Below, one piece after another: positions 1-42,668 of a stretch of DNA of 64,000 nucleotides (position 1 is its first letter; every line of letters begins with the position of its first letter). Both the position numbers and the translations under genes were made by a program. The DNA is from an uncultured virus (IMG/VR IMGVR_UViG_3300035180_001708). Its lineage: Duplodnaviria; Heunggongvirae; Uroviricota; Caudoviricetes. A model generated the notes under the pieces. The model did no database searches. It worked only from the letters and a program-made list of their open reading frames with translations, and had not been told where the DNA came from. The DNA is taken from IMG/VR virus record IMGVR_UViG_3300035180_001708. One strand, 5' to 3'.

Positions 1-1433
1 GTAGACCGACCATCGTAGGCAATCATTGTTGTGCAGTTCTTGGCTACGTTACCGGAAATAACTGTGCCAGTATCGCCAGCAGTAGTTGACGTGGTACCAC
101 TTAGGTCAATGGCAATTGACTGACCGTCAAAGCTGTTGCCTGTAATAGTGACCCCTGTACTGGTGCCTGTGGCGTTGCCCATCCGGACACCCGATCGAGT
201 TCCTGTACCCTTGAAGGTATTGTCAGCAATTACAGCTGTAGACACACCGTCATAGCCAATTTGCCCAATGCCAAAACCACCCTCGAGCGACCCTTGGTTG
301 TTGTTTTCAAAGTGGTTTGAAACAACCTTGACTTGGCTTGCACCTTGGTCGAGAGTCAATCCCTCGAGTCCGTTTAACCGGAAGGTATTACCTATACAGG
401 TCAACCCGATCACCCCTGCGTTAGACAACCCAACACCATCGTTAGAGTCAAACAGAGTGTTAGTCACCATCAGTCGGGTAGTGGTCAGACCTGATGTAGC
501 GTCATAGCCAGTAGCAATGCCATTCTTGGCACTACCTGTCAACCGAGAGTTGCGAACTCGAGCGTCGGCCCCATACACAAACAGCAGAGTAGTATCAGTG
601 GTGTTTACAGCCTTCTGGCCGTCAATTGTTGGTCCGTCCAGGCTAAAGTAAGCCCCATAGACACGAAGCAAGTTGTTAGCAGTGTTAGTGCCTTTGCGGA
701 AAACTCCGTTGCCAACCAGAGCTACATTGTCTTGACCAACATCAACGTTGATTTGAGTATCACAACGCCAGATGCCTCCTGACGTGTCAATCGACCCACC
801 TCCGAGGCTAGCAACATAGTTCACAGCTTGTTTCACTCGCGTACTACAAGTAGTAGTGCCTGTAGGGTCTGCGCCCCAGTGCAGCAAGTGGACAGCAAAG
901 TCAGGAACCCAACCTGGCAAGTCACTAATAGCTGTGCCTGTGCCTAGATATCGGTAGACTTGACCACCGGCTCGCATAACTAGCCCTACTGCAGGAGTTC
1001 GTCCTGTAGCCCAGGTAACAAAATCAGAGCGAGTAGCAAAGTCTTGTCGTTCCAGAGTTGTTCTTGCAGCTACTGGATCGGTGATACCATAGCCTGCTAG
1101 AGTAGTTGGTCGACCCGTGACCCGAGCCCAGGTTGGAGCCACAGTAGCGTTGATAATCGTGTAGTCTAGAGACCAGACAGTACCGCCATCAGAGACAACC
1201 ACATCACCCTTGTCACCATCTGCCACACCACCTGCACCACCCGCAGGGGTAACCCAGGTTCCGTCGTCTCGTAGGTAGGTCAGCCCACTTCCACCAGAAG
1301 CGGGGACCAGCCCGTCAGCAGTACTTGTAAAGCGACCATAGGACGGTACGGTTTCAATGACAACTTCATCACCAGTCGTGTCGTTTAACACAACTGACTC
1401 TTGAGTATCATTAACATAGACAACTTCTGTCAT
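1..1433 (-). CDS. Tailspike / tail fibre with right-handed beta-helix (pectate-lyase-like) domain, runs off window edge
   Basis: Not in ORF track (open at edge). ATG at 1433 overlaps the upstream TGA. Manual translation MTEVVYVNDT...PTTLAGYGITD...HLLHWGADPTGTTTCSTRVKQAVN... followed by repeated 'ITGNSF/IADNTF/ISGNV' beta-helix rungs. Confidence 0.8.
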   Translation of the reverse strand, partial: MTEVVYVNDTQESVVLNDTTGDEVVIETVPSYGRFTSTADGLVPASGGSGLTYLRDDGTWVTPAGGAGGVADGDKGDVVVSDGGTVWSLDYTIINATVAPTWARVTGRPTTLAGYGITDPVAARTTLERQDFATRSDFVTWATGRTPAVGLVMRAGGQVYRYLGTGTAISDLPGWVPDFAVHLLHWGADPTGTTTCSTRVKQAVNYVASLGGGSIDTSGGIWRCDTQINVDVGQDNVALVGNGVFRKGTNTANNLLRVYGAYFSLDGPTIDGQKAVNTTDTTLLFVYGADARVRNSRLTGSAKNGIATGYDATSGLTTTRLMVTNTLFDSNDGVGLSNAGVIGLTCIGNTFRLNGLEGLTLDQGASQVKVVSNHFENNNQGSLEGGFGIGQIGYDGVSTAVIADNTFKGTGTRSGVRMGNATGTSTGVTITGNSFDGQSIAIDLSGTTSTTAGDTGTVISGNVAKNCTTMIAYDGRS

Positions 1434-1732
1434 TTAAGGTAAACTCCAATAGGACCGTAGCCACGACCATCGGACAAGATTACCCGAAACTGAACTTGAG
1501 CTCCTGTGCCTGATGGCCAGTTGCCCGACCAAGGACAGGTGATCCGCAACCGTCCGTTGGCTGCATCAGCAACGATCACAGTCATTGACGATTGTAGACT
1601 TGTTGGAGACACCTCGAACAGGGTCGCAGTCAACCCTACCAGCGAGATAGGGTTTCCTGTTACCTTGTCACGAATTAAAAGGTCTCGAGTAAAGTTTGCC
1701 CCTCGAGTGAGACGGTAGTAAACAATAGACAT
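1430..1732 (-). CDS. BppU-like baseplate / fibre adaptor protein
   Basis: RGANFTRDL...GNPISLVGLTA...DAANGRLRI pattern; directly upstream of tailspike. Confidence 0.55.
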   Translation of the reverse strand: MSIVYYRLTRGANFTRDLLIRDKVTGNPISLVGLTATLFEVSPTSLQSSMTVIVADAANGRLRITCPWSGNWPSGTGAQVQFRVILSDGRGYGPIGVYLK

Positions 1733-1749
1733 TGAGACCTTTCTTAGTC

Positions 1750-4700
1750 TTACGGACCAAAACCATAGCGATCGAAGCCAGGTTTCAGTGGAGCCAGAAT
1801 TTCTTCGGGAGTAAAGCCTTTGTCGAAAAACCCAAGTCGTTCAGCTTCGGCTAGGTACGAGTTGTACAATTCGCGGGGCAACCCGTCAGCCAACAGCGCA
1901 TCCATTGTCTTGCGAATGTTGTTAGACTCACGAGCACGAGCATAGACCCGGAACATGGCGTTGATGCCCTCGGGCAACTCGTTGATGTTCTGGAAGATAG
2001 CGTCGTGAATAGTCGACGTACCCATGTTGAGTTTTCGACCCTCGAGGTGGTAGCCACGAACCAGGGACGCGTCAAGAGCATGGTTGCCGTTAACGCCGAA
2101 GCCCAGTCGAACATCACCGATTTCGGCCTTGCCTAGTAGTTTGCCATCTTCCGCGTCCATCTGATAGATGTTACGGACGTAGCGACGAGACGCTGGGTCA
2201 TAGAACCGAATCTCTTGTTGGATCTTTGGTCGATAGTCTTGATACAGCTTCTTGCCGTCAAAGGTAACCCACGGAATACGAACTTTCTTGGTTGTACGAG
2301 CAAAGTCTGCCCCCACACGCTTCCAGAAGTCGATGTAGGTTTGAGTCACCGGAGCACGCTCGGCTAGTTTTTCAGACATCAGCTTAGCAATTTCACGGAA
2401 GTGATCGGGACCTAGAGCTACGTTGCGATTGTTCGAGTACTTACGAACTAAGTCAGCCACTGCGGGGTGAATTTCTTCAGCCTCGGCGAGAATAGCTGAC
2501 GCCTGAGCAGCGTCTCCTGTGTTGATGATCTCGAGCAACTCTTTCTTTATAGCTAAGAGGTCTACCTTAGTTTCGAGAGCGCCAAGAGCCTCGGCTTCCT
2601 TTGCTTTCTTGTCAATTTCCTTCGTGATAGCCAGAAATTCAGCCCGAGTGGTAACAAGAATGTCTTTTTTACGCAACACCTTTGCTAGCTCTAGAGCCAC
2701 ACGAGCAGTTTGCCCTGTTTGTCCAGCACCATAGAAGGCAATCATGACCTGGTACTTAGACGCCTTTGACAGGTCTTCCCAGGTCAACTTCAATCCTAGA
2801 TCGTCCATTAGTTGCTGGAAGCGGGGGTCAGCAACCACGTCTTGAGCAACGAGGTCATAGATCCGCATCTTACGCGTTGTTGGCAACACATTGCTCGTCA
2901 ACGCTGCCAGTCGGTTTCCCGTTGACAACGAGATGACCTGCAACCCGCTAGCACTAGCGTCAGCTTCACCCATCAACTTAGTCTTGTAGCCCGCTAGGCT
3001 GACTGCATCGAACCGACCACCTGTAGCCTGGTGGATACGATAGTACTCGAGACTAAATCTAGCAATCTTGGCAACCTCTTCCCCGTCGATGGATTGGATA
3101 AAGGGGTCGTCAAGGAACTCACGCAGTCGACGATCTCGTTGAGTAGTCTCGGAGATCAACCGACCAACACGAAGAATTGCCTCCTCGTTGTCTCGGAAAA
3201 TCTGCAACCGCCCAGCGTCAGTCAAGGCCTCTGTGGCAGGCCCGATTACAGCAGCGAGCTGAATACGAATCTGATGCAGCCCCTCGGGTGTCATGGCTGT
3301 AGCTTCGGCTGAGTTCAGGAAAGGGCGAACAACCTCTCCGCCAGTAGGAGTGAGGTAGCCATTGTAGTATACACGACCCCGTCCATCAATCCTAGCCATT
3401 GCACGGAAACGACGACCTGTGGCGCGATAGTAGCGAAGGGCTTCCATGAGTCCATAACCTTGGTCACCACGTCTAATAATCTCCTCTCTAAAGGTGTTCA
3501 GCTCGTCGTAGTGAGCGGCTGCACCGCGATTGTCTTTGAAGCGGACAAGATCGTCCATGAAACTTGTAAACTCAGGGTCTACTTCATATTCCAGTGACAT
3601 GGTATGGTTTAACATGTCCGAGAAGTCACCGTCAATTTGCTTTGCATCAAAGTTAGCCTGAGCTGACCGGGTAATTAGGCTGATGCCTGAGTCTTTCCCC
3701 CGTGAGTTAACATAGGTCTTTCGACCAGGAACAACAACGTAGCGGTTCTCTGGGCGGTCGATGCCGAAGCGATTAGCTAGCTCTAGACGACGATTGTTTG
3801 ACTGCAGTCGTAGCATGTCTGGGTCAAGAACTTGAACTTCACGAGAAACAGTGTCTTTCCAGGCTCCTGACGCTCGGTTAGTTTCAAGGTCGATGACAGC
3901 TCGTCGAGTTACCCCTCGGCTGTTGATACGGATCAACCCCTGGGATCGCATGTACTCAAGGATCTTAGACCCTTCTTCATGATAGTCTTGCAGGCTATGT
4001 CCTAGGTAAGGAACAATGTCACCCCAGGAATCAGCAACTTCACGACCGAGACTAATTGCCAGCGAGTCGTAGTCAGTGGTTCGGCCCTCTGCAACAATGC
4101 GGAACATACGAGCGAGGTTAGACACAGACCGACCCTCTAGATCACGAAGGTTAGTCTTCAAGAAGTCACGCCACAAGTGGAAACGAAGAAACTCCAGGTC
4201 GATGATCGATTGATACTTTTCCTTGATTGTGCGAGTAGCAAAGTCCATGAACCCTTCTTCGTACACAGCTCTAAGGTCCTTGTACCAACCTGGTGTAAAG
4301 AAGCCCTTGATCTCATCGAGTATAATCTTCTTGATTGCAGGAGGCGTCTTGCCATAACGAGTATAGAATTCGAGGGGGTTGTTACGATAGAACACAGACC
4401 GAATAGTACGCTTGAAGAAAGAGTCCTTGACTCGGTCAACAATAGACTTAGGTTTATCAGGCTGGTCAAAAAAGTACGCCTTCCAGGGCGATCGGCCTGT
4501 GTAGTACATGCGACGAGCAAGAGCAGTACCCTGGTCAGCTGTCCAGTCCTGAGCATACAACTCATAAGACCGACGGTTAGCGAGCAAGTCTTCGATCGAG
4601 ATAGTCTCACCACCAATTTGTACACTAGGTTGTGATGGATCACCACGGAACCCAAGGAACAGGCTGTCACGAGCCCGAGACCGGCGGTCCAACAGTCGAG

Positions 4701-6264
4701 AAACGTTGACCACAGAGTAGTTAGTCTCTGCTCGGAAGGTAGCCTGGAAGTCCTCCCAGGGAACAGGAGTCTTCTGGTAGCGTTCAAACACCACACGAAG
4801 AGTTTCTGTGACAACAGACTGTTGATTGACTGACACACGATCGGTCAGCGACTCAACAAAGTTCTCAATGAAGGCTTTTTGTCGACGATCAAGCAGCTTA
4901 GACTGCTGCATGTAGTCGAGTCGTTCACGATACAGAGTAAAGTCAGGGTTGTAGTAGTACGAAGAGCGAACTTCTCCCGTGAAGGGATCGAAGGTAGAGT
5001 TACGAGGGTCAAACTCATTAGTTGACGCAAAGCGAACTCCCCGTTTACCCGCAAGAGACGTACCCCGGTAGTCCACAAGAGACAGGGGTTGTCCTGCATT
5101 GGTAGTATCTGTGATAATCATCTTTGTCAGCTCGTCTGCTGCACGGGTTGACCGTACTAGCTGAAACGGGCGAGACACAGACACTAGACCGTCAAGAGTA
5201 GGAGCGACTGTAGCTGTACCCTCTAGCCCGAAGAACGTAGCAAGGTTGTCCTTGACACGCAACACAGACAGGCTAATCGGATTGCCACGAGCTGTGAAGA
5301 AGTCAGACATTGACAAGGTACCACGCTCAAACAGTCCTACTCGTTCCTCTGTTCCTAGGTGAGACAGCTTAGTAGACATGGACTGACGACGAAGCCAGTC
5401 AGTAAAGGACTCCTTGGCAGGGGCGAGACCGTTCAGTCGGGTCTCGTCAACAGCCTCAAGAGCAGTATGGTTCAACCAGGGAGACTGTACCGAGCGCAAC
5501 ACAGACTTAGCCTTGACAGTCAACACTAGGGTAGAGCGACAGTTCCAGTGCAGAGGGGGTACTACCTTGAGGTTGTCAGGAGTCTGAACCAACCCGTCTG
5601 TAGTTGCACAAATAGAGCTAGTGCGAGAGTCAAGGATAGCGGTGAAGACAAGCCCAGCAATCAGGTCACTGTTAGCCTGAGCTACACGACGCTTTATGAG
5701 TGACTCTGCCTGAGTAAAGTTAGTGACCACCAAGGTCTTGGCCTGAGCCTCGGTCAACCGACTAGTACGGATAATGTCGTCGATCAACTCACGTTCGGTG
5801 GTGCCTGCCACAATGCCACGCCGTACTCTGGCGTTGATACGAGTCAGCTCGTCCGACCCTGCACGGTTAAGGTTCTCGAACAAAGTACCGTGCTCAGTGG
5901 ACGTGTTAGACAACCGAAGAGGGGTTCGGGTAATGTCACGAGCTAACTCACCACGATTAACCGACTGGACCTTGAAGAAGTCACGAACAGAGCGAGACAG
6001 ACTGTTAACTTGAAAGTCAAGTTCAGCCCCCACAAAGTCGTCAATTGCTGACCGACCAATGCCATAAAGCTGTTGTACGTGGCGAGTAACTTCACGCTCT
6101 AGGTCGAGAGACAGCGAAGGGGGTTTAGTACGAAACAGTCGAGACAAGAAGCCACGGTGGGCTGCAGCTTCTCGTTCGATCAAAAGTTTTGCTGCGTCTT
6201 GGTAGCGTCTCGTCAGGATAAGATGTTCAACTTGTCGGTCAAACAAGTCCTGGTTAATAGACAT
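1750..6264 (-). CDS. MuF (SPP1 gp7-like) minor head protein domain fused to T7-family single-subunit RNA polymerase
   Basis: N-term FTAILDSRTSSICATTDG...PPLHWNCRSTL (MuF signature). C-term IDGRGRVY, EADASASGLQ (motif A), KYQVMIAFYG (motif B), NGNHALDAS, TIHDAI (motif C). Confidence 0.9.
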   Translation of the reverse strand: MSINQDLFDRQVEHLILTRRYQDAAKLLIEREAAAHRGFLSRLFRTKPPSLSLDLEREVTRHVQQLYGIGRSAIDDFVGAELDFQVNSLSRSVRDFFKVQSVNRGELARDITRTPLRLSNTSTEHGTLFENLNRAGSDELTRINARVRRGIVAGTTERELIDDIIRTSRLTEAQAKTLVVTNFTQAESLIKRRVAQANSDLIAGLVFTAILDSRTSSICATTDGLVQTPDNLKVVPPLHWNCRSTLVLTVKAKSVLRSVQSPWLNHTALEAVDETRLNGLAPAKESFTDWLRRQSMSTKLSHLGTEERVGLFERGTLSMSDFFTARGNPISLSVLRVKDNLATFFGLEGTATVAPTLDGLVSVSRPFQLVRSTRAADELTKMIITDTTNAGQPLSLVDYRGTSLAGKRGVRFASTNEFDPRNSTFDPFTGEVRSSYYYNPDFTLYRERLDYMQQSKLLDRRQKAFIENFVESLTDRVSVNQQSVVTETLRVVFERYQKTPVPWEDFQATFRAETNYSVVNVSRLLDRRSRARDSLFLGFRGDPSQPSVQIGGETISIEDLLANRRSYELYAQDWTADQGTALARRMYYTGRSPWKAYFFDQPDKPKSIVDRVKDSFFKRTIRSVFYRNNPLEFYTRYGKTPPAIKKIILDEIKGFFTPGWYKDLRAVYEEGFMDFATRTIKEKYQSIIDLEFLRFHLWRDFLKTNLRDLEGRSVSNLARMFRIVAEGRTTDYDSLAISLGREVADSWGDIVPYLGHSLQDYHEEGSKILEYMRSQGLIRINSRGVTRRAVIDLETNRASGAWKDTVSREVQVLDPDMLRLQSNNRRLELANRFGIDRPENRYVVVPGRKTYVNSRGKDSGISLITRSAQANFDAKQIDGDFSDMLNHTMSLEYEVDPEFTSFMDDLVRFKDNRGAAAHYDELNTFREEIIRRGDQGYGLMEALRYYRATGRRFRAMARIDGRGRVYYNGYLTPTGGEVVRPFLNSAEATAMTPEGLHQIRIQLAAVIGPATEALTDAGRLQIFRDNEEAILRVGRLISETTQRDRRLREFLDDPFIQSIDGEEVAKIARFSLEYYRIHQATGGRFDAVSLAGYKTKLMGEADASASGLQVISLSTGNRLAALTSNVLPTTRKMRIYDLVAQDVVADPRFQQLMDDLGLKLTWEDLSKASKYQVMIAFYGAGQTGQTARVALELAKVLRKKDILVTTRAEFLAITKEIDKKAKEAEALGALETKVDLLAIKKELLEIINTGDAAQASAILAEAEEIHPAVADLVRKYSNNRNVALGPDHFREIAKLMSEKLAERAPVTQTYIDFWKRVGADFARTTKKVRIPWVTFDGKKLYQDYRPKIQQEIRFYDPASRRYVRNIYQMDAEDGKLLGKAEIGDVRLGFGVNGNHALDASLVRGYHLEGRKLNMGTSTIHDAIFQNINELPEGINAMFRVYARARESNNIRKTMDALLADGLPRELYNSYLAEAERLGFFDKGFTPEEILAPLKPGFDRYGFGP
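2542..2560 (-). promoter_or_regulatory. Class B phage promoter-like motif inside the MuF-RNAP gene
   Basis: Minus strand CCTCTTAGCTATAAAGAAA; first 18 nt identical to the copies at 10363-10380 and 37849-37866; points toward tail genes. Confidence 0.65.
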
Positions 6265-6274
6265 AGGTGGTTCC

Positions 6275-7564
6275 TTATGCGTAGATGAGATTCAATCCTA
6301 GGATGTCTGCGGCAGCAATGGCTGTAGTATCAGTGTCAACAACTCCGCCTGAGATACCAAAGGCGATACCTGTACCGAGATACAACCCAATCGATGAGAA
6401 GTCTCGAATAAACATAGAGTTAGGGGGCAACACAAAGGTCAATACAGGGCTATCAGTGCCAACAGTAGGAGCAGACGCCTTGTTGTAGATCTTTAGGTAA
6501 CGACGAGTAGCCGACGCGTTGTAACAGTCGATAGTGTACAGCCGACCAGCGCTAGCCTTTACAGAGTTGGGGTTAGTTGTAGCCAACGATGAAAACAAGC
6601 TGAAGGTCGACGTCAACCCACCAGCTACAGCTTCAACTCGAAGCGAGGCAGGAGCCAGGGCGGACGCAGTTACCTGAACAGGCAGACTGTCACTAAGGTC
6701 TGAACGACCAGAGTAGCGGCTAAAGTCAACCGACATACGGTAGTCGTCCTGGACGCTGATAGCATGAACTCGCCAGCTGGTAGAGCTCGCGGGAGCAGTT
6801 GACCCGTTGATACAGCGAATACGAATCTTGTACAGCTTGGTCGGGTCAGGAATACCACCAGTACGTTTACCACCAACAAAACTAGTAGTAGCCGCGTCAA
6901 CAAACTTACTAGTAAACACAACCTGGTCAGTGTCAGCCACAATTTCATACATCCAGCTGTGGATGAAGTCAGGGGTTGTACCCGTGGCGGCAGTGGTACC
7001 AAAGTTGAAGTTCGACGAGACGTACTCGCTAATGCCATAGCCACGAGTCACGTAGTTAGCAACAGCCACAGCAGTACCTGTCCAGCGATAACCAAACAGG
7101 TTAGTTGCGTTCTCAGTCACAGTTCCAGGAAAAGTAGTGTCTGTCTCCACAGCACCGGTAGAGTCAACAGAGACCAACTCTACGTGGAAGGTGGTGTTGG
7201 CAATGCGCTGAGACGCTGACACAGCAACACTGAACTTCAATGGCATGGTAAACGTGTCAACTGACAGCAGCACGGTCTCAGACCCGGCAGTAGTTCCTGC
7301 AGCAATGTTCAGGTAACGGCTAGAGTTAGCTGTACCGTTAACAGTCACTGCTTGGCCTGCTCCCGTTGCAACAGTTACCCACCGAGCAGGGTCAAGCGTC
7401 ATGAAGGCTTCACGATACGAGACCCGGCTGGTGGTGGTCATGGACTCGACATCACTGGCCAGTACAACAGGCAACGAGTCTGCTGCAAGCTTCTGACCAG
7501 TCGAGTCGGCCTTGGCTGCTGTCGTAAACGCTCCATTTGCGTCCTTGATTAGAATTGTAGACAT
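6275..7564 (-). CDS. Putative virion structural protein (beta-rich, Thr/Ala/Ser-rich)
   Basis: 429-aa ORF in late operon between portal and MuF-RNAP; composition typical of virion appendage proteins. Confidence 0.55.
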   Translation of the reverse strand: MSTILIKDANGAFTTAAKADSTGQKLAADSLPVVLASDVESMTTTSRVSYREAFMTLDPARWVTVATGAGQAVTVNGTANSSRYLNIAAGTTAGSETVLLSVDTFTMPLKFSVAVSASQRIANTTFHVELVSVDSTGAVETDTTFPGTVTENATNLFGYRWTGTAVAVANYVTRGYGISEYVSSNFNFGTTAATGTTPDFIHSWMYEIVADTDQVVFTSKFVDAATTSFVGGKRTGGIPDPTKLYKIRIRCINGSTAPASSTSWRVHAISVQDDYRMSVDFSRYSGRSDLSDSLPVQVTASALAPASLRVEAVAGGLTSTFSLFSSLATTNPNSVKASAGRLYTIDCYNASATRRYLKIYNKASAPTVGTDSPVLTFVLPPNSMFIRDFSSIGLYLGTGIAFGISGGVVDTDTTAIAAADILGLNLIYA

Positions 7565-7768
7565 TTATACTCCTTGCCCAACGTCCGGGTAACAGGTAGC
7601 GGTTGCCACCGGAATGTTAGCCGCCTTAGCGGACTCTAGTTGCGTTGAGAGCAGCAGTTGACAGTCAGTTAGAGACAGCAGCTCGGGGTTAATTGATACA
7701 TTACAAGTAGTTGCCGAGTCACCTGTGCACCACAGAAAAACAGCTAAAAACAGAGGGGTCATGGTCAT
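7565..7768 (-). CDS. Small Cys-containing secreted/membrane protein
   Basis: Hydrophobic N-terminus, four Cys; start overlaps portal stop. Confidence 0.5.
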   Translation of the reverse strand: MTMTPLFLAVFLWCTGDSATTCNVSINPELLSLTDCQLLLSTQLESAKAANIPVATATCYPDVGQGV

Positions 7769-9333
7769 TGATTCTCCTGAATTGACACTCTTTCGTTGGC
7801 AGGAAGCAGGGCGTCTTGTTGAATTTCGGCCACCCCGTCATCATCGGAGTAGTCGGAAGGTATGATATCGTGTTGCTTAGCAATTGCGAGCCACACAGAC
7901 CGGGGAATCAATCTGTTCTGATACCATTCTGTAGCAAGTCTCGCCCACTCAGCACCAAGAGGCGCAGGGTTAAAGTCACTCGACAACTTGAAGTCAAGAT
8001 CTGTCATGTCCAGCTCAGTACCATACTTCCAACGAAGCATAGTCTCAATGACGTACTTCATTGTCGTCGAGACCTTCATGTTGATCACAGCCAACTGAGA
8101 CGTCACACTCGAGTTACGAATCTCGAGAGCAATACCCGAGTCAGCTCCAGACCCGTGACCAGACTCAGGAGACAACAACCGTAGCCCCATGCGCATCATG
8201 TCCGCCACAGCTGATTCAATGGATCGCTCCATGTCAGACAGCGCTGCCGTGGGAGTGGCAACACTATCGATCTTGTCTTCACGATTCAGCTTGATCCAGG
8301 TACCCAGCCCAGCGGACACAATACCCTGAAAGTCCTCGTTCGACATGTCCGAGAACACCACAGGAGTAAACGTTGACGCCCCGTACATCAGATGGTTACG
8401 ACGAGACAACTTGTTGTACAACGCCACTTCCCGGTCGATGACAGGAGTCAAGAAAGGAATCTCGAGAGACACTTCCCCGGACAGCGGGTAAATAGGCAAG
8501 TAGTTGACCAACTGACCCCCCATCACGGGTTGCGACTGAGACACCAGCTGCCAGGCATCGGAGCCAGACACTGACCCTGGAATCTGCAGTGTTCCCGATT
8601 GAACGTCAGCAACAGTGGTTCCCACACGATGATAGGTATCAACAGTGTAGTTACCAGACTCGTCGAGGTAATGGTCAGCAGCAACAACCTTCAACACAGG
8701 GTGGAACACCGACACAGCCGGGTCATAGTCCTTGACCAGGTAGCGAAACACAACACGAGACAACCGGACCTTGGACGTGACCGGGTCACGAGTGGTCTGC
8801 CAGTTAATCACGTCCTCGGCTCGCCACAACACAGGGTACGGGAACAGTTGATCACGGTCCTGGGACGACAGTCCAACATAGTCCTCGACCACAGGAAAGT
8901 CAATTGACACCCAGCCTCGGGATGTCACCAACTCTTCCCAGATCGCTGCGTCCAGAAACGCAAACAACGACCGACCGTCCTCGGTGAACCGATTACGCAG
9001 CCAGTCCTCGGCGTCTGCTGGGACTGACGCGGGTAACTCTAGCTGAGGTTTCTTCCTCAACAGCCCTCCAGCAAGGATCTTGGCATACTGAGACACTAGC
9101 CCCGGCAGCTCGGCCTCGGAAACATACCAACGGTAGTGTTCGGGAGACATTCGAGGGCTGAACGGGACAAGCAAGTTTGTATAGTTGACTGTATCTAGGA
9201 TCTCATCATGGGCCTTGGCGTACAGCTCGCCATTGACGACTGCACGAGAACGACGCCACAGGGACTCCATGGACTCGTACTCGTAGCAGGGCGTCCCCAC
9301 GGTCACCCGACCGGTTGGAAAAACTAGGCTCAC
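7765..9333 (-). CDS. Portal protein (DUF4055-like)
   Basis: 522 aa; GGLLRKKPQLELP...EDGRSL...RGWVSIDFP...YPVLWRAEDVINW, typical of DUF4055 portals; upstream of MuF gene. Confidence 0.8.
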   Translation of the reverse strand: MSLVFPTGRVTVGTPCYEYESMESLWRRSRAVVNGELYAKAHDEILDTVNYTNLLVPFSPRMSPEHYRWYVSEAELPGLVSQYAKILAGGLLRKKPQLELPASVPADAEDWLRNRFTEDGRSLFAFLDAAIWEELVTSRGWVSIDFPVVEDYVGLSSQDRDQLFPYPVLWRAEDVINWQTTRDPVTSKVRLSRVVFRYLVKDYDPAVSVFHPVLKVVAADHYLDESGNYTVDTYHRVGTTVADVQSGTLQIPGSVSGSDAWQLVSQSQPVMGGQLVNYLPIYPLSGEVSLEIPFLTPVIDREVALYNKLSRRNHLMYGASTFTPVVFSDMSNEDFQGIVSAGLGTWIKLNREDKIDSVATPTAALSDMERSIESAVADMMRMGLRLLSPESGHGSGADSGIALEIRNSSVTSQLAVINMKVSTTMKYVIETMLRWKYGTELDMTDLDFKLSSDFNPAPLGAEWARLATEWYQNRLIPRSVWLAIAKQHDIIPSDYSDDDGVAEIQQDALLPANERVSIQENQ

Positions 9334-9632
9334 AGCGAGTCATCCGACCAGACTACAGCGGCTGACCCAGTCAACGTTCGTGCAAACACTCGCTTGCCAA
9401 CCACAGCAGGGTTAAGGTCAGTCAACAGTCGACCGTGCAGTGGAGGGTCAGTCGGGCGAAACACATGACCAAGGTCAGAAGCCGCGGGAGGGGTTGCAGT
9501 CGTAGTGACAACAAGAATAACTCCGGCTTGATTACCGGACAGCCAGGTCATGGACGCCTTGGTGCAGTCAGCGTTAGTCAACTCGGTCCAGGTCGAACTG
9601 GACAATTGGTGTACATAGGTGTTACGTGCCAT
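9330..9632 (-). CDS. Hypothetical protein (late operon)
   Basis: Overlap-coupled with phoH and portal. Confidence 0.6.
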   Translation of the reverse strand: MARNTYVHQLSSSTWTELTNADCTKASMTWLSGNQAGVILVVTTTATPPAASDLGHVFRPTDPPLHGRLLTDLNPAVVGKRVFARTLTGSAAVVWSDDSL

Positions 9633-10296
9633 GGGATGCTCCTTCGTGTAGCATGAAGGTTCGGACCAGAGTTGCTACTAGGTCGGAACGAACGATATCG
9701 TCAACAGTGAATTTAATAATAGGAATTTCAGTCTCGAGTCCGTAGTGGTGGACCAGCCCCTCAAACTCGGACAGTCCCGAGTCACGAATGTCACGTTGCA
9801 TGGGGTCACCCATCAACACCATCCTTGACCCTTCACCGATGCGGGTGGTCACAGCCTTGACTTCCTCGTAGTCTAGATTCTGGGCTTCATCAACAAGAAC
9901 AACAGAGTCCTCGAACGAGGTACCGCGAATAGTCTCGAGAGGGACATAGACAATAGACCCTGAGTGGACCTTTGAATCGTAGTTGGTTGCTCCTAGACGA
10001 GACCGAGCTACTCCAATCATGGGGGCCAACCAGGGTTCTAGTTTCTCAGTTACAGTTCCGGGAAAGAAGCCTAGGGATCGACCAGTAGGAGCATTGGTTC
10101 GAGTAAAAACAAGTTGTCGAGCTTGACCTGACAACAAGAGATTAACAGCAGCGTTAACAGCACACCATGTCTTACCAACACCCGCAGGGCCAATGGCGAT
10201 TGTCAGCTGAGAACGAGTAATTGCTCTCAACAAACGATCTTGATTGACAGTCTTGGGTTGAATATGAGACGGGGTGTTATCACGATTATTTCTCAT
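9622..10296 (-). CDS. phoH: PhoH-family ATPase
   Basis: GPAGVGKT, LGFFPG, RGTSF, VDEAQN, TRIGEGS, GDPMQRD, DIVRS motifs. Confidence 0.95.
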   Translation of the reverse strand: MRNNRDNTPSHIQPKTVNQDRLLRAITRSQLTIAIGPAGVGKTWCAVNAAVNLLLSGQARQLVFTRTNAPTGRSLGFFPGTVTEKLEPWLAPMIGVARSRLGATNYDSKVHSGSIVYVPLETIRGTSFEDSVVLVDEAQNLDYEEVKAVTTRIGEGSRMVLMGDPMQRDIRDSGLSEFEGLVHHYGLETEIPIIKFTVDDIVRSDLVATLVRTFMLHEGASHGT

Positions 10297-10359
10297 TTAT
10301 CCTCTTAATTTTTATTGATGAGAAGAAACTACAAAACATAATGTTAACATATGTTATCA

Positions 10360-10380
10360 TTCTTCTTTATAGCTAAGAGG
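10360..10380 (-). promoter_or_regulatory. Class B phage promoter-like motif upstream of phoH-portal-MuF/RNAP operon
   Basis: CCTCTTAGCTATAAAGAAGAA on minus strand, 21/21 identical to 37846-37866. Confidence 0.75.
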
Positions 10381-10420
10381 ACTAGGGGTATTATCCAACG
10401 GGGGCAGGGGGGCGGCCCTC

Positions 10421-10439
10421 CCTCTTTAACGCTAAGAGG
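10421..10439 (-). promoter_or_regulatory. Variant class B motif (CCTCTTAGCGTTAAAGAGG)
   Basis: Close variant of the repeated motif about 60 nt upstream of the perfect copy; ends are self-complementary (CCTCTT/AAGAGG). Confidence 0.5.
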
Positions 10440-10443
10440 TGAG

Positions 10444-10481
10444 AACTGAGGGTTTTTATGTATCTATAATGAGAGAATCGA
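10444..10481 (+). promoter_or_regulatory. Class A early promoter-like motif AACTGAG-N9-GTATCTATAA
   Basis: AACTGAG ggtttttat GTATCTATAATGAGAGAATCGA; 24-nt core shared exactly with 13229-13252; at start of the rightward early region. Confidence 0.7.
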
Positions 10482-10510
10482 CTCTCTAGTATAAACTTCA
10501 AGAGGTGACC

Positions 10511-10660
10511 ATGCTGACCTTCTTCAAACGCCTGTTTTCGTCCTGGGTGTGTAGGAGATGCAAGGTGCGCTACCCGATTAACCCAGTGACAGGAGCGCGG
10601 GTGTATGACTCCGGACAAGGGGTATGCCTCAACTGTAACCACATAACCACTCAAGAGTGA
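10511..10660 (+). CDS. Small zinc-ribbon protein (49 aa), first early gene
   Basis: Below ORF-track cutoff. SD GAGGTG; MLTFFKRLFSSWVCRRCKVRY...GVCLNCNHITTQE with two CxxC. Confidence 0.65.
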   Translation: MLTFFKRLFSSWVCRRCKVRYPINPVTGARVYDSGQGVCLNCNHITTQE

Positions 10661-10663
10661 GAG

Positions 10664-11095
10664 ATGACAGCACAAATCGAACTGATGGCGCTGGCGGCGG
10701 AACGTATGAAGCGGGAGGCGGCTGAGGTTTGCGGCAAGATAGACCGTGGAGAACTTGGCGCGGCGTACTGGAATGTTGCGGACTGCGAGCAGGCCATCCT
10801 CGCCCTCCCCATCGGCTACACCGAGGCCCAGCTTGACGCCGAAGCGATGGCGGGGTTCCCCGAGTCGATGCGCCACCTAGTAGAGGTGCAGTTCAATCGA
10901 CTGTGGGACCATGATTGCCGGGGGGTGTCTGAGCAGCAGAGAGCAGCCTATCGGGCTGATGCAGCTGTTGCTCTGGCTGTGGTTCGCTCAGCAACCCGCC
11001 CAGACTGCTGTGATCAATGCAATGGCCACACCTTTGCCGAGCTGCATGATCGGTCTGGGTGGCGTTGCGTTGAGTGCAAGAAAACCTTTCATTAG
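10664..11095 (+). CDS. Hypothetical protein with C-terminal zinc ribbon
   Basis: CDQC...CVEC at C-terminus. Confidence 0.6.
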   Translation: MTAQIELMALAAERMKREAAEVCGKIDRGELGAAYWNVADCEQAILALPIGYTEAQLDAEAMAGFPESMRHLVEVQFNRLWDHDCRGVSEQQRAAYRADAAVALAVVRSATRPDCCDQCNGHTFAELHDRSGWRCVECKKTFH

Positions 11096-11128
11096 GGAAC
11101 AACTGAATCAAGTGGGAGCTTGTAATCC

Positions 11129-11509
11129 ATGGTTAAGACTAAGCAAGAACTGTTTGACGCTGCCTGGCTTGGACTTGTCAGCCAAGGTCGCAAATCGGTG
11201 GACTTCAAAACAAACATTTGTCAATACAACGGACCAGGAGGACGACATTGTGGGGTGGGTTGGTTGCTGACGCATCTTGATCCAGAGGTGGTAGCGACTT
11301 TCGAGGGTAAAGGTATCTCAACCCTCATGCACGATGGCAAGAGCAAACAGTACCTGGTGGAGTTTGAGGGGTCTCTAGCCTTGCTCAGTGAAATCCAGGA
11401 ATGCCATGATGAACTCAACGCGTTGATGCCTTTTGTGCCCAAATTGTATGAGGGATTCAAGAGAATCGCCGAGCGCTTTGAGTTAGACACTAGGGTCCTG
11501 AATCCATGA
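11129..11509 (+). CDS. Hypothetical phage protein
   Basis: SD GGGAG; QGRKS...CQY...CGVGWL...IQECHD pattern seen in phage early proteins. Confidence 0.7.
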   Translation: MVKTKQELFDAAWLGLVSQGRKSVDFKTNICQYNGPGGRHCGVGWLLTHLDPEVVATFEGKGISTLMHDGKSKQYLVEFEGSLALLSEIQECHDELNALMPFVPKLYEGFKRIAERFELDTRVLNP

Positions 11510-12617: not shown

Positions 12618-12631
12618 CCGGGAGTCAAGTG

Positions 12632-13006: not shown

Positions 13007-13220
13007 CGCCGAAAACTACTATGTTGTGATTGACGTTCACATCATGGTCGACAAAGACTCGGAGCTCCAGACTTTTTCAGGGGTGCTGGACTCTGGTTTT
13101 CAGTCGGAAGACCTTTGCAAAGCTGCCACGCAGCTGGCAATGGATAAGTTGCTTCGAGACCAGGCAAAGTTGTTTGGTCTTTGGTACGAGTACCGTTGTA
13201 TTCCTGGTATAAAAAACTGA
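12960..13220 (+). CDS. Small secreted two-Cys protein
   Basis: Signal peptide (ASA-E); FQSEDLC...YRCIP. Confidence 0.6.
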   Translation: MLKGLILSTMLAGSASAENYYVVIDVHIMVDKDSELQTFSGVLDSGFQSEDLCKAATQLAMDKLLRDQAKLFGLWYEYRCIPGIKN

Positions 13221-13252
13221 GGAAAACAATGTATCTATAATGAGAGAATCGA
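13215..13252 (+). promoter_or_regulatory. Class A early promoter-like motif
   Basis: AACTGAG gaaaacaat GTATCTATAATGAGAGAATCGA. Confidence 0.7.
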
Positions 13253-13291
13253 ATCTCAACCCCGGCTTTATAGCCCCAACAGGAGGTCATC

Positions 13292-13543: not shown

Positions 13544-13715
13544 GACTTTAAAACCGCGTTTGTGGGGATCGTAACTTAAAACCCTCTTATCCTCTTACAA
13601 CTAAAATAGACCCAACCAGCTGCAGTCGAGTTCTGCTTTATCTCATCTAAAAAAGGCAACCTAAAAACCTGCAGCGAACTTAGTTAGAGCACCTAAGTCT
13701 ATAAAAGCTCATTCT

Positions 13716-28969: not shown

Positions 28970-28971
28970 AA

Positions 28972-37845: not shown

Positions 37846-37866
37846 TTCTTCTTTATAGCTAAGAGG
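37846..37866 (-). promoter_or_regulatory. Class B phage promoter-like motif upstream of terminase island
   Basis: CCTCTTAGCTATAAAGAAGAA on minus strand, identical to 10360-10380. Confidence 0.75.
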
Positions 37867-38563: not shown

Positions 38564-38580
38564 CCACTTAGCTATAAAGC
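38564..38580 (+). promoter_or_regulatory. Class B motif variant upstream of stand-alone RNAP gene
   Basis: CCACTTAGCTATAAAGC, 15 of first 16 nt match consensus, 25 nt before ATG. Confidence 0.65.
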
Positions 38581-38605: not shown

Positions 38606-40786
38606 ATGTCAGATAACTCTATTTTAACAAAACTCGTCGTTGACTTCGACGATAGAAAATCAATTTTAAGAGCTGACCGAAATCAATACACCCACTTCTT
38701 GAAGGAAGAAGATGGAAGAAAAATAATCCTGTACTCCTTCGCCCATGTAATCAAGGGAGTTGAACGCAAGGCAACTCTTGTAGATTTGTCAGTCACTCTA
38801 GGTCGTAGAGTAAGACAAAAACTAAGGTTGAAGAGAAATTCTGTAGCCGCTTGCCAAGTTGGATGGTTTATTCTTGTCTCTTTCTTTGAGGTAGGTCTAC
38901 TCCACTACACACTGGAAAAAGCAGATAAGAAAGGTCGCAAGTCTAAATACCTGGCCTATATAATCACCGTCAAGGATCGAAAAAGTTTGTTTGATCTTTG
39001 GGATGAGTTGAACAAGGAAGAGCAGATTGACTTGTTTCCAACAGGCCAACCTCCTGGCGACTGGACTTCACCAACACACGACCTTGGGTATGTCATTATC
39101 AAGAAATCTAGCCCCGAGATTACCTCAAAGCTAGTACCAGAAACAGCACCACTAATCTATGAGATGTTGAATAAACTAGGGCGTCAGCCTTGGATCATCA
39201 ACACTCCCATGTTGGAGGTGCTAGAATATTTTATGGATCAGCCAGCGGAAGGAAACCCTCTAAAACATAAGACTGAACGTGATCCTGAACGTCGAGCTAG
39301 TTTGACTATTGAAATTGAAGCCATTGTGAGGTTGGCACGTCGAAATTCAGAAAGGCTGTTTTACCACCTTTACAATCTAGATTTTCGAGGGAGAATCTAC
39401 CCAAATTCTGCATATTTGCACGAGCAATCGTCTGACAATGCAAAGAGTCTGTTGCTGTTTGCCAAGGGGGTTCCCCTGGGAGAAACAGGGTTGTACTGGT
39501 TGTTGCTCCATGGTGCGAACACCTGGGGTAATGACAAGGTCTCTCTTGATGACCGAGTCGAGTTTTGTCTAACAAACTATGACACTTTTGTGGAGTATGC
39601 ACGAAATCCCTATGAAGTCAGAGGTTGGATGGAGGCTGATAAGCCTTTTAGCTTTCTAGCTTTTTGTCATGAGTTAATGTATTTGCAAGATTGGGTGTCA
39701 GCTGGAAACCTCCAGAATGAGTTTGTTTCTAACCTAGTGTTGTATCTCGATGGTAGCTGTAATGGCACACAGCATCTCGTAGCAATGTCTAAAGATGAAG
39801 AGCTCGCACCTTACGTAAACCTGGTCCCTGAAGAGGTGCCAGGAGACTTGTACAGTTATGTTGCGGACAAAGTCTGGGCTAGGCTCGACCGTCTTGCAGC
39901 TGCTGTACCCCCTGAGATTGCTTGTCAGCTAGACGATGTTTTGAATCGTCTTGAGACACTGCAAGAAGCCTATGACACAGCTCCTGCAGGATCTGAACGC
40001 AAGGCGATTGCCTACACTGAGGTCCAAACTTGGCGTAATAACAATCGTAAGCTGCGTGAGATGCTCTACCCGATCTATTGGGCGCGCATCACAGATCGGA
40101 AGCTACGGCGTAAGTTAGTTAAGCGGGGAGTAATGACTTCCAGCTATGGTGCGGTTCCTTTCGGAATGGGACAACAAGTGTGGGATGACACCCGAGGGCT
40201 CAGCCCTTATCTTGCTAGTCAAGAAAAGTTGTGGTCATCGATGCTTGGATTGGAATTGTATCAGACTTGCCGCGAAGACCTTGTTGGTCCAGGTAAGTTA
40301 CTGGCTCTTTTTGAGTCTATCGCCGATGCTTACAATGAGAAGCATGAATACATGGCTTGGTTTAGCCCTGTAACAGGGTTTCCGGTAGTTCAGCACTATC
40401 GCCAACCTTTGTCAACCCGAACTTGGCTGTCTTATGGAGAAAATCGCTTTCATGTTGTTGTTGAAAATTGGGAGGAAGCTACTCTTGACAAGGACTCACA
40501 ACGTCTTGGTGCGTCTCCAAACATTGTGCACAGTCTTGATGCTACCCACATGACCATGGTTATTTGTGCTGCGTACTTTGATGTGGCAGCAATACACGAC
40601 TCTTGGGGCTGTGTGGCTGGAAACATGGAGAAACTTTTTGTCTTGATCCGAGAAAAATTTGTAGAGTTGTATGAGAAAGACCCTTTGAAGCAGATTCTGT
40701 CGCAGCTAGATGCTGAGACAATGATGCCAAAAAGAGGTAGCCTACAGTTGGAAGGAGTGCTTGAGAGTGACTACTGCTTCTGCTGA
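38606..40786 (+). CDS. T7/T3-family single-subunit DNA-directed RNA polymerase
   Basis: LDFRGRIY, LDGSCNGTQH, RKLVKRGVMTSSYG, PNIVHSLDA, IHDSW. Confidence 0.95.
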   Translation: MSDNSILTKLVVDFDDRKSILRADRNQYTHFLKEEDGRKIILYSFAHVIKGVERKATLVDLSVTLGRRVRQKLRLKRNSVAACQVGWFILVSFFEVGLLHYTLEKADKKGRKSKYLAYIITVKDRKSLFDLWDELNKEEQIDLFPTGQPPGDWTSPTHDLGYVIIKKSSPEITSKLVPETAPLIYEMLNKLGRQPWIINTPMLEVLEYFMDQPAEGNPLKHKTERDPERRASLTIEIEAIVRLARRNSERLFYHLYNLDFRGRIYPNSAYLHEQSSDNAKSLLLFAKGVPLGETGLYWLLLHGANTWGNDKVSLDDRVEFCLTNYDTFVEYARNPYEVRGWMEADKPFSFLAFCHELMYLQDWVSAGNLQNEFVSNLVLYLDGSCNGTQHLVAMSKDEELAPYVNLVPEEVPGDLYSYVADKVWARLDRLAAAVPPEIACQLDDVLNRLETLQEAYDTAPAGSERKAIAYTEVQTWRNNNRKLREMLYPIYWARITDRKLRRKLVKRGVMTSSYGAVPFGMGQQVWDDTRGLSPYLASQEKLWSSMLGLELYQTCREDLVGPGKLLALFESIADAYNEKHEYMAWFSPVTGFPVVQHYRQPLSTRTWLSYGENRFHVVVENWEEATLDKDSQRLGASPNIVHSLDATHMTMVICAAYFDVAAIHDSWGCVAGNMEKLFVLIREKFVELYEKDPLKQILSQLDAETMMPKRGSLQLEGVLESDYCFC

Positions 40787-42668
40787 AATCACTATCTATG
40801 GCTACATTGAAGTAGATGAGTCGGATAATTTTCATCAAGAGTTCTTTACTACAAAGAGGTTGGAAGACTATTTTTCCTATGTAGAGAATGTTCCTACCCT
40901 CACTCCAAGTAGTATCTTGACTTTTCGATCTCAGGATGATCTCGACATGGAGTGTCTGCTTGTTCTTGACTGGGACTATTATTTTAATCCAGAGTCCAAT
41001 CACGACGACTACTGGGGAGAGTTGGTGCTGAAATGACTGAGAAGAACTGGGGTTGTATAAACTGTTCAGGTTGGGACTGTGCTTGTGACAAACCCAAGAC
41101 TGTTGAGTTGACTCCTGAACGATACCAAGAGTTGCTTGACGCTGAGGATAAACTTATTAAACTTGAGGCAGGAGGTGTTGACAACTGGGATGGGTATGAG
41201 TTTTGTTTTGAGGAAGAATGATGAGAAGACCACTTGTTTGGGTTGCTCCACGAGAACACAGTGCTTGTTGGTGCTGCCCAGGCCACGACAAGTTTCCCAC
41301 AGAGACCTACCGTAATAGACGGTCCAAACACGCTCGGGCTCGCGATCGACAGATTGAAAACCAACTTGTAAGAACAATACAGAAAAGGACACTGAAACAT
41401 GCGGTTGACCAAGGCAATTATTACGGCAATTACTAAAGTAAAACAAGAAGAAAAAGTAAACAATGTTCTTACGTTGGACTTCCAGGCTGCCCTCAACAAG
41501 GCAGTAGGTTTATCTTGGAGTGACTTCAATACAATTCGAAAAATTGAAGATTCAATGTTAGAGGGTAGAATTCTACAATACTACAAAGGTTTTTATGGCT
41601 TTTACAATTCAAATAACCAATATGCTACCTTGGTTTTTGATGGTGTTGTCTATGTTCCTTTTAACATAAGTACAAACACTATTCGATCTGTTTGCGGTAG
41701 CTTTATCACAAAAGAGGTTGTTAAGGACTGGGCTACAGTGTTGTCAGCCTTCACAAACGTTGAAGCAGCCATTGCAGTTTATCCTGAGTTGAAGCCTCGG
41801 TTTGTGGCCTTGTTTGGGGAGGTGTTCTGATGGCTAAGTTTATGGTGGTGTGCAAGTTAGAAACAACTGTTGTTGTTGAAGCAGGTAGCCCTAGCGAAGC
41901 TATCGACCGTTGGGGGCAATTACAAGAAGAAGGTCTTCTGACTCTTGACCATTATGTGATAGATCAAGATGAACCTTATACAATTCAAGTAGATAATCAG
42001 ACAAAGGAGACTATTAGTGTCTAAATGGGCTAATGAACCTTACGTGTCGAGTCCTTTTGTAGTATATGGCTACGTGGCAGATGGCGGTGATGGGTCTTAT
42101 AGTATTTTCTGGCTTGATGGGAAAATAGAAGATCACACAGATGAAGATTATATTGAAGGAGTGTCTGACGGAGACGGACTAAGCTATCGATCAAAACTGA
42201 CTTTTGATTCCAAAGAGGCAGCTATAAAAGCTGGTATTCGATACGAGCCAGTCCTGAACTGGCTGCAAGAGCATGGAATTAAAACAAGGGAAGTTTGATG
42301 TCACTAACTTTTCTGCAGCATACCTACATTGCGCGCTGAAATTGAATTTTGAAAGCACCAGGTAGCTATAAAGAGGAACAAAATCAATGAGCACTATTGA
42401 ACTCCATGACTACAATCCGACCTCTAAATCTGGGTCCAAAGGAATCTTTTTGTCTGTAGGGCCTGAGCGGCGGCGCAAGGTTTATCGCATTACGTCAAAG
42501 ACTGGCCGTGCGCTGTTTCTCAAGTATGCGTCGCGCTGGAACACAATGCAAGTTCATAACTACCATCATCTAGGTGTTGGTCTTCGAATTACCAAAAATT
42601 TGAAATGCTCTTACCTAGGCAAAGTCATTTCTACCCGCAAAGCCTTCAAGCTTATTGCTAACAGCTGA
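40761..42668 (+). other. Run of small hypothetical CDSs (incl. 41033-41221, 41218-41436, 41399-41830, 41830-42024, 42017-42298, 42387-42668)
   Basis: Coupled short ORFs between RNAP and SSB. Confidence 0.6.
42358..42376 (+). promoter_or_regulatory. Class B motif variant ahead of replication genes
   Basis: CCAGGTAGCTATAAAGAGG, intergenic, shares TAGCTATAAAGA core. Confidence 0.5.

Follow-up and report, generated by a model that had tools for sequence, protein, structure and literature searches.

The stretch analysed here, referred to throughout as the window, comprises 64,000 nucleotides (nt) of DNA from an uncultured virus of the Caudoviricetes (IMG/VR record IMGVR_UViG_3300035180_001708). 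Near its left end, at positions 1750..6264 of the minus strand, lies an open reading frame (ORF) for a protein of 1504 amino acids (aa), which begins with ATG, contains no internal stop and ends with the stop codon at 1750-1752. Its product joins a MuF-type head-morphogenesis domain to a T7-like single-subunit RNA polymerase (RNAP). An earlier sequence-only reading of the window had proposed this architecture from a single uninterrupted ORF. Both the ORF and the architecture are borne out, the latter by stronger evidence than had been put forward, whereas two features had been overlooked, namely that the gene lies on the minus strand and that the window carries a second, standalone RNAP gene.

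Domain organization of the MuF-RNAP fusion

Both parts of the fusion were detected by Pfam and PHROGs searches. Phage_Mu_F (PF04233) matched aa 142-246 (nt 5527-5841; E 5.5e-10; score 40.4 bits, cutoff 29.6), the core of a MuF/SPP1 gp7-type head-morphogenesis domain spanning aa 1-345 (5230..6264, minus strand), and RNA_pol (PF00940) matched aa 1091-1422 (E 3.9e-6; score 26.4 bits, cutoff 22). Among PHROGs, the protein matched phrog_241 (head morphogenesis, E 7.5e-47) and phrog_414 (RNA polymerase, E 2.2e-18). The MuF signature that had been read from the N-terminal part is thus recovered by both resources, and C219, H239 and C242 are invariant in an alignment of 121 family proteins.

To describe the fold of the protein, we used two AlphaFold2 (AF2) models, one of aa 340-1504 built from an 84-row alignment and the other of aa 1-620. 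The first model had a predicted local distance difference test score (pLDDT) of 86.7 and a predicted template modelling score (pTM) of 0.81, and T7 RNAP ranked first among its Foldseek matches (E 1e-19). In VIA comparisons it aligned with the T7 elongation complex 8dh5_M at Z 31.5 (root mean square deviation 3.6 Å, 518 residues aligned) and with 3e2e_A at Z 26.9 (659 aligned), model residues 217-1164 (aa 556-1503) pairing with T7 residues 31-883. Mitochondrial RNAPs gave Z values of ~21-28.5 and N4 mini-vRNAP entries 15.5-18.0 (2po4, Z 18.0). Since the structural match spans nearly the whole T7 chain, aa ~556-1504 (1753..4599, minus strand) are predicted to form a complete T7-like polymerase with N-terminal domain, thumb, palm and fingers. 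An hhalign comparison of the family with canonical RNAPs agreed (Prob 99.3, E 9.5e-21, 477 columns). Sequence searches of the PDB gave no match at E<=1 when the whole fusion protein was used in phmmer, and only weak, colinear matches to T7 RNAP (E 1.4e-6) with a family profile. Profile searches and structure prediction, which had been suggested as checks of the sequence-only reading, therefore both upheld it, with the two Pfam domains above cutoff and a T7-like polymerase fold. The middle region of ~650 aa that it left unassigned proved to be mostly the N-terminal domain and thumb of the polymerase; aa ~346-555 still lack an assignment. This latter segment (aa 346-555; 4600..5229, minus strand) is a family-specific, mostly helical domain that is kept across the family. 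It had no Pfam match and did not align to T7 RNAP, and an Atlas search with aa 345-560 returned no usable match.

The model of aa 1-620 had a pLDDT of 89.2, with low-confidence linkers at aa 347-356 and 537-541. A Foldseek search of BFVD, which compares predicted with predicted structures, returned 95 matches at E<=1e-3, mostly phage minor capsid or head morphogenesis proteins, including a MuF protein named as an ADP-ribosyltransferase and another with a zeta-toxin domain. Against solved structures (Foldseek/pdb and VIA-wide), the same model matched only generic helical bundles (Z<=9.4). The predicted fold of the MuF domain matches that of other phage MuF proteins, cargo carriers among them.

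The catalytic motifs occupy aa 958-1424 (1993..3393, minus strand). All of the T7-RNAP motifs quoted in the sequence-only reading are present, and their key residues are invariant in the 121 family proteins: D960, R962, R964 and Y966 of DxRGRxY, D1102 of motif A, K1170, Y1178 and G1179 of motif B, H1395 and D1398, and H1420-D1421 of motif C. The same catalytic residues are invariant in a further comparison of 37/37 proteins at 39-71% identity. In the family-profile alignment, D960..Y966 corresponds to T7 D421..Y427, D1102 to T7 D537 and H1420-D1421 to T7 H811-D812, while profile-profile alignment pairs K1170, M1174 and Y1178 with K506, M510 and Y514 of the standalone RNAP of the same phage. 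A beta-hairpin segment of the fusion aligns to the T7 specificity-loop region.

One motif-B residue departs from this pattern. T7-like RNAPs carry Arg, Lys, Tyr and Gly on the O helix, and the fusion has all of these except the Arg. In profile-profile alignment, R502 of the standalone RNAP, which is invariant in nine of nine canonical RNAPs and which we take to be the equivalent of T7 R627, falls on S1166, so that the replacement of this Arg by Ser, as originally read, holds. Across the 121 family proteins the position is occupied by Ala (69), Gln (32), Ser (11), Asn (5) or Val (2) as the five commonest residues, Arg not being among them, and the adjacent K1167 is Lys in 116. The Arg was therefore lost early and its loss is fixed across the family; it does not reflect decay.

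The fusion is the third gene after the portal gene in the window. The portal protein is encoded at 7765..9333 (phrog_145, E 3.3e-41; DUF4055), and the two ORFs that separate it from the fusion (6275..7768), which encode 67 and 429 aa, belong to no known family; an Atlas search with the 429-aa protein returned viral hypothetical proteins only. Further upstream on the same minus strand are PhoH (9622-10296) and a 100-aa ORF, and downstream of the fusion are another 100-aa ORF and a beta-helix protein that extends past the window end. An IMG/VR contig (L003) that encodes a 100% identical fusion continues beyond the left end of the window with genes for an 897-aa virion protein, a scaffold, a major head protein, adaptor Ad1, a tail terminator and a major tail protein. 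With the portal upstream and these head and tail genes downstream, the fusion gene lies within a head-and-tail morphogenesis operon, in agreement with the late-operon position proposed for it. In 43 related loci with the portal upstream, the gap between portal and fusion was <=150 nt in 27, 151-1000 nt in 11 and >1 kb in five. Positions 1-20000 of the window had no megablast match among phages, and the fusion had none in the nearest record, G001 (21 kb).

Distribution and variants of the fusion family

A tblastn search of 50,697 phage records returned three full-length matches to the fusion, at 40% identity and all from the roseophages DSS3_VP1 and DSS3_PM1, in which the homologues are annotated as 'minor head protein-like' or 'head morphogenesis'; in DSS3_VP1 the homologue is gp108 (YP_010105321.1). 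Protein clusters searched with aa 850-1504 yielded 182 clusters at E<=1e-3, on contigs of up to 104 kb; the best 120 of these were mostly 1400-1600 aa long, and nearly all of them carried both Pfam domains. With aa 680-1504 as the query, phmmer found 117 proteins among 1.84 billion representatives. The full-length matches (1300-2073 aa) aligned from their residue ~600-680, and canonical RNAPs of ~810-840 aa appeared in this search only at E>=1e-4. When 24 of the phmmer matches were scanned with Pfam, MuF was found in all 16 long ones (1301-2073 aa), down to 25-27% identity. In IMG/VR, the fusion was confirmed by tblastn in at least 570 stretches. The search of phage databases for the same architecture that the sequence-only reading had called for thus located it in at least 570 IMG/VR stretches and two cultured phages.

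This recurrence bears on whether a sequencing or assembly error joined two genes, which had been named as an outcome that would undo the proposal. We found no support for such an artefact and assign it next to no probability: the same unbroken architecture recurs in the IMG/VR stretches, in both cultured phages and in almost every one of the 120 clusters listed, which rules out a chance join. The single case in which the region is annotated as two genes, EBPR siphovirus 1 (JF412302), is of another kind. Here, at 5780-6730, the fusion homologue is split exactly inside motif B (..KAAKAQNMV | FYGAG..), its halves being annotated 'head protein' and 'hypothetical protein', and the split is caused by an intron-like insertion that holds an HNH endonuclease gene together with a group I intron match (RF00028, E 1.2e-8) that, at 40.5 bits, falls short of the gathering score of 50. 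The halves rejoin in frame.

Longer family members (1561-2073 aa) were considered as possible carriers of inteins, a notion that was dropped: the inserts are variable segments, and none lies at motif A. Lineage-specific inserts were seen in P0100, P0109, P0114, P0111, P0131, P0137, P0139 and P0145, none of them at a catalytic motif. An insert of 131 aa follows aa 257 (within MuF), one of 187 aa follows aa 852, inserts of ~90-125 aa sit at aa 1083-1089, and 290-345 aa are added directly ahead of the conserved C-terminal tail (..YGIGP). Two other proteins differ in extent. The metagenomic P0163 (1301 aa) keeps MuF and ~360 aa from the start of the polymerase-like region, after which NTP_transf_2 and GNAT domains take the place of the catalytic palm; it represents an exchange of cargo or else a chimeric contig. 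P0122 (785 aa) is identical to aa 720-1504 of the fusion and most likely reflects a gene call on a truncated contig from the first in-frame Met rather than a separate product. Pelagibacter phage Kolga encodes a 633-aa MuF protein (45152-47053) that shares only aa 1-335 with the window protein and has no RNAP part; its C-terminal part contains the string HEFAHH, which looks like a zinc-peptidase motif. Kolga also encodes one T7-like RNAP and a thymidylate synthase.

A standalone RNAP and two promoter-like motifs

At 38606..40786 on the plus strand, the window encodes a canonical, non-fused T7-like RNAP of 726 aa (PF00940, E 4.9e-76; phrog_414, E 2e-131) that shares 44% identity with the protein annotated as RNA polymerase in DSS3_VP1 (gp080). 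BLASTP between this protein and the RNAP part of the fusion gave an E of 0.002 over 90 aa; the two are not recent duplicates, since their sequence similarity is barely detectable. Seven of 15 fusion-bearing IMG/VR records also encode the standalone RNAP, including the only complete one, G002 (76.9 kb), and the eight that lack it are fragments, 41-86% complete. The standalone RNAP is present in DSS3_VP1 and DSS3_PM1 as well, and the replication module of the window (DNA polymerase, exonuclease, primase/helicase and ribonucleotide reductase) is syntenic with that of DSS3_VP1.

Two promoter-like motifs, here called E and L, accompany these genes. One 11-mer alone, ATCTATAATGA, has two or more copies in the window, in G002 and in DSS3_VP1 alike; it forms the core of E. 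In E sites it is found at a fixed distance of 11 nt from AAAAA[GC]TGAG, giving the composite AAAAA[GC]TGAG-N11-ATCTATAATGA. The first copy in the window, CTGAG-N11-ATCTATAATGA, occupies 10446..10486 of the plus strand, has its core at 10462 and takes in the inverted repeat GAGAG..CTCTC (10471-10486); it stands back to back with leftward L sites and heads a rightward, putatively early block of small ORFs, the first at 10505-10660. A second copy, with an inverted repeat TGAGA..TCTCA, lies at 13217..13258 on the plus strand (core at 13233), upstream of the plus-strand ORF 13292-13543. A minus-strand reading of the 43-nt repeat at these places (10444-10486 and 13215-13257) was rejected, as the plus orientation is conserved in G002 and DSS3_VP1. 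Four minus-strand ORFs (10391-10876, 10893-11111, 13042-13392 and 13829-14407) overlap the plus-strand ORF series behind the E motifs; they have no family match and are probably spurious.

Scanning IMG/VR for [GC]TGAG-N11-ATCTATAATGA retrieved at least 136 stretches. We fetched 79 E loci, of which 47 encode homologues of window proteins and 37 have a standalone RNAP gene within 6 kb. After deduplication, every E copy lay upstream of the RNAP gene and on the same strand in 25 of 25 loci, the nearest copy being 0.8-4.2 kb away. Across 91 distinct E sites, positions left free by the search pattern were also conserved: the A-tract, the AAAA that follows GTGAG and the G[CT] preceding ATC. In 45 of the 69 sites compared, the TGA of the core opens a perfect inverted repeat of at least 5 bp, whose stem comes in 13 sequences; two control regions gave 8/69 and 0/69, and shuffles a mean of 4.5 (maximum 10). 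No TTGACA-like hexamer was seen 16-18 nt upstream of the TATAAT of E in the sites read. A scan of positions 1-20000 for the sigma-70 consensus gave 16 sites against 14.3 expected. The E core was absent from Kolga, which had one site with a single mismatch against 3.7 expected, a weak comparison with a single outgroup.

The L motif, CCTCTTAGCTATAAAGA, has seven sites in the window at up to three mismatches, where 0.16 would be expected. One exact copy (10364..10380, minus strand) is directly upstream of the PhoH-portal-fusion operon, and near it lies a variant (10423..10439, minus strand) that resembles the DSS3_VP1 L motif GCGTTAAAGAGGG. Another exact copy, inside the fusion ORF at aa ~1236-1241 (2544..2560, minus strand), faces the downstream virion genes; relatives at 60-66% identity have an L motif just past the end of the fusion ORF. 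The exact copy at 37850..37866 (minus strand) heads a leftward block that ends with the large terminase gene (34724-36085). On the plus strand, a variant with two mismatches (38564..38580) precedes the standalone RNAP gene by 26 nt, and a further variant (42358..42374) lies ahead of the replication genes. The motif is phage-specific: G002 has four copies of its own version, ACCAGGGGACGCTAAAGAGAGA, and DSS3_VP1 has seven copies, plus variants, of AATAGGGTGCGTTAAAGAGGGG, all on the gene strand. These L motifs, which are T7/T3-like, resemble T3/SP6-type promoters (..CTAAAG/CTATAG, followed by purines). As a side observation, positions 10297-10500 make up a compact divergent control region, in which two leftward L sites oppose one rightward E site with a GC-rich stretch between them. 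Opposite the terminase block, an ORF at 36072-36443 on the plus strand would, if real, encode an HU-like Bac_DNA_binding protein (E 2.4e-6).

In DSS3_VP1, two E copies (35811 and 36258) lie upstream of the RNAP gene (42436-44634) with no L copy between, and three L copies (45926, 46393 and 46551) follow closely after the gene. Given the layout in DSS3_VP1 and G002, and the position of E upstream of the RNAP gene in 25 of 25 loci, some polymerase must be at hand at time zero to read E, be it the injected fusion or the host RNAP.

A putative two-polymerase relay and its alternatives

We propose, with a probability of about 60%, that the fusion is a capsid-packaged, ejected early RNAP that acts first in a relay of two polymerases; packaging, ejection and activity are predictions from genes and models. 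SPP1 gp7 binds the portal. Because MuF proteins, SPP1 gp7 among them, are head components and known carriers of enzymatic cargo, the fusion, made late in infection, would be carried into the procapsid via the portal by its MuF domain. A few copies would be packaged and, when the next cell is infected, would exit the capsid together with the DNA, whereupon the RNAP part would start transcription from the family-conserved E sites in front of the early genes. The early block, which in most relatives contains the standalone RNAP gene, would then supply that enzyme, and it would read the phage-specific L promoters of the replication, packaging and structural operons, including that of the fusion gene itself. 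For the specific step in which the injected enzyme reads the E sites, we consider the odds about even. The functional inference is coherent, in that it fits the site in the head module, the MuF fold, the invariant catalytic site, the second RNAP and the promoter layout. Independence from host RNAP may matter to these phages, since their cultured relatives have DNA in which deoxyuridine (dU) is substituted.

Several observations weigh against this proposal. Because the core of E includes TATAAT, a perfect sigma-70 -10 hexamer, host RNAP could read E, in which case the injected polymerase would be unnecessary. In the window, ~25 kb and a block of minus-strand genes separate the E copies from the standalone RNAP gene, and the relay is therefore less tidy here than in relatives; the gene itself is preceded only by an L variant, with no E nearby. 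E (at up to one mismatch) occurs in only six of the 15 fusion-bearing records and is absent from G003 (88% complete) and G005 (83%), both of which have both polymerases. The motif-B Arg, invariant in canonical enzymes, is missing family-wide. Conservation of the specificity hairpin does not discriminate between the enzymes, being 60% against 56% overall for the fusion and 51% against 52% for the standalone RNAP (6 genomes). A protein of 168 kDa would have to pass a siphovirus-type tail, and virion proteomics of DSS3_VP1 were not found in the accessible part of PMC8323127. Finally, no homologue of the DSS3_VP1 deoxycytidylate deaminase or of its HD-family dTMP phosphatase was found in the window (tblastn at 1e-4, Pfam).

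The TATAAT hexamer and the missing Arg would also suit a fusion that is packaged without being the early transcriptase, with host RNAP reading E and the RNAP part priming replication, pulling the genome in or holding a DNA end. T7 itself uses host RNAP for its early genes, and T7 and mitochondrial RNAPs prime replication. We nevertheless regard such a role as unlikely. A domain that is inactive or only binds DNA should not have kept all catalytic residues invariant over 25-79% identity, and E lacks a -35 element while at least 16 of its positions outside TATAAT are fixed across the family. Priming and pulling would, moreover, also need polymerase activity and a start site, so that these roles partly overlap with the relay proposed here.

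Less probable still, in our estimation, is a fusion that works only in the producing cell and is not ejected, either as a late polymerase that is free or tethered to the portal or procapsid, or with a MuF part that performs its ordinary head function while the RNAP part is cleaved off for use in that infection. The gene does lie behind a late-type promoter, and the low-confidence linkers noted above could be cleavage sites. However, the canonical RNAP is already present and its promoters stand ahead of the late genes, and a polymerase made only late cannot explain how E is read at time zero. Retention of the MuF fusion in all 16 long representatives would also be pointless if the parts worked separately.

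Among known systems, phage N4 resembles the proposed relay in its logic. Its early promoters contain hairpins, a parallel to the inverted repeat at the E sites, and its two-polymerase scheme parallels the one proposed here. According to the accessible part of PMC5512222, N4 gp50 is a capsid-carried, injected T7-family RNAP that serves the early genes before a second phage RNAP takes over; it has ~3500 aa, of which 998 aa serve injection and 1400 aa, with a zincin peptidase among them, serve encapsidation, and it lacks MuF. N4-like virion RNAPs (vRNAPs) are, according to that article, confined to N4-like phages. The contrast drawn in the sequence-only reading, that the N4 enzyme is much larger and differently organized, agrees with this description. 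The fusion does not share the three-part plan of gp50: it has 1504 aa with MuF at the N-terminus, nothing after the polymerase and no peptidase domain (Pfam). Its polymerase module is also further from that of N4 (Z 15.5-18.0) than from T7 and mitochondrial RNAPs (Z 20-31.5), and it matched phrog_2166 only at E 6e-5. With T7 RNAP, by comparison, the fusion shares the fold over T7 residues ~30-883, DxRGRxY and motifs A, B and C, but it is 14-18% identical, lacks the motif-B Arg and has a new N-terminal extension of ~555 aa.

A polymerase fused to an ejected structural protein, together with a second RNAP, is likewise found in Thermus phage P23-45, where gp96 is a vRNAP fused to the tape measure and transcribes pre-early genes that include the gene of the non-virion RNAP (nvRNAP) gp64 (PMC10770324, as far as accessible). 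That enzyme, however, is of the two-barrel cellular type and its carrier is a tape measure and not MuF; the word 'MuF' does not occur in the accessible text of that article. MuF proteins with toxins offer the other half of the comparison. Enzymatic MuF cargo has been proposed to travel with the DNA (PMC5512222, PMC5576092), and the known cargos, as described in the part of PMC5576092 available to us, comprise toxins and enzymes that modify the host; they span a few hundred residues and come mainly from temperate phages of Firmicutes. These proteins share with the fusion an N-terminal MuF, a portal-adjacent gene and a variable C-terminal enzymatic cargo, whereas the cargo of the fusion is a ~950-aa polymerase in lytic-type marine phages. 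The cultured relatives DSS3_VP1 and DSS3_PM1 (Naomviridae, with dU-DNA) encode a full-length homologue that is 40% identical, and they share with the window the second RNAP, the E motif and the synteny of the replication genes, but the homologue is labelled there as a head protein only.

Virion RNAPs and the carriage of cargo by MuF are already known; it is the combination of MuF with a T7-type RNAP that we did not find described. A virion-delivered RNAP is known from crAss-like phages, too. A full-text search of the literature found no description of a MuF-RNAP fusion, within the scope of main texts, beyond which supplementary gene tables could name it; the view taken in the sequence-only reading, that this architecture is not known as a characterized system, is consistent with this result. 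The words 'RNA polymerase' and 'MuF' are absent from the main text of PMC8323127, PMC12697855 and PMC12669031, and the word 'polymerase' from the accessible text of PMC5576092. Somewhat short of even odds, we tentatively suggest that tagging a T7-family RNAP of normal size with MuF may be a second, independent route to a virion RNAP of this family; the enzyme would pass the portal and a long tail, read a family-wide promoter of ~40 nt (A-tract, GTGAG, ATCTATAATGA and a start-site hairpin) and start a two-polymerase cascade in an abundant marine phage group whose cultured members have uracil-DNA.

Virion RNAPs are known from few systems (N4, jumbo phages and P23-45), each of which disclosed a new mechanism of transcription and protein ejection. 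The fusion is both widespread and present in cultured, genetically accessible phages of Ruegeria pomeroyi, DSS3_VP1 and DSS3_PM1, and the proposal can be tested by its predictions, which are a protein present in virions, a candidate promoter of defined sequence and early RNA synthesis that resists rifampicin. The polymerase and promoter would form a compact pair that may work on dU-DNA. The case also bears on how a large enzyme leaves the capsid by means of a MuF tag, so far a hypothesis for MuF toxins. If the more far-reaching suggestion of an independent route is true, MuF would be a general ejection tag, capable of carrying a ~100-kDa enzyme, and an abundant marine phage group that is largely invisible in metagenomes would be free of host RNAP from the first minute.

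A rationale for an injected RNAP may lie in the DNA itself. Roseophage relatives replace dT by dU (PMC8323127, accessible part), and the jumbo dU-DNA phages AR9 and PBS2 have an injected early RNAP and a later second RNAP (accessible parts of PMC5449584 and PMC5312081). That a dU phage such as AR9 also has both an injected and a later RNAP suggests a connection with dU-DNA, but the RNAPs of AR9 and PBS2 are multisubunit, related to cellular enzymes and not fused to a head protein. Among genes of nucleotide metabolism, the window encodes an NT5C-family 5' deoxynucleotidase (22020-22733) and a nucleoside 2-deoxyribosyltransferase-like protein (43224-43640); NT5C is the family of the PBS1 dTMP phosphatase (PMC12697855). 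A pair of genes for NAD salvage, ribose-phosphate pyrophosphokinase and nicotinamide phosphoribosyltransferase, lies at 28942-32165. Toward the right end of the window, positions 55662-62310 hold genes for a glutamine amidotransferase, two COOH-NH2 ligases and an amidoligase, together with an S6-glutaminyl-transferase-like gene.

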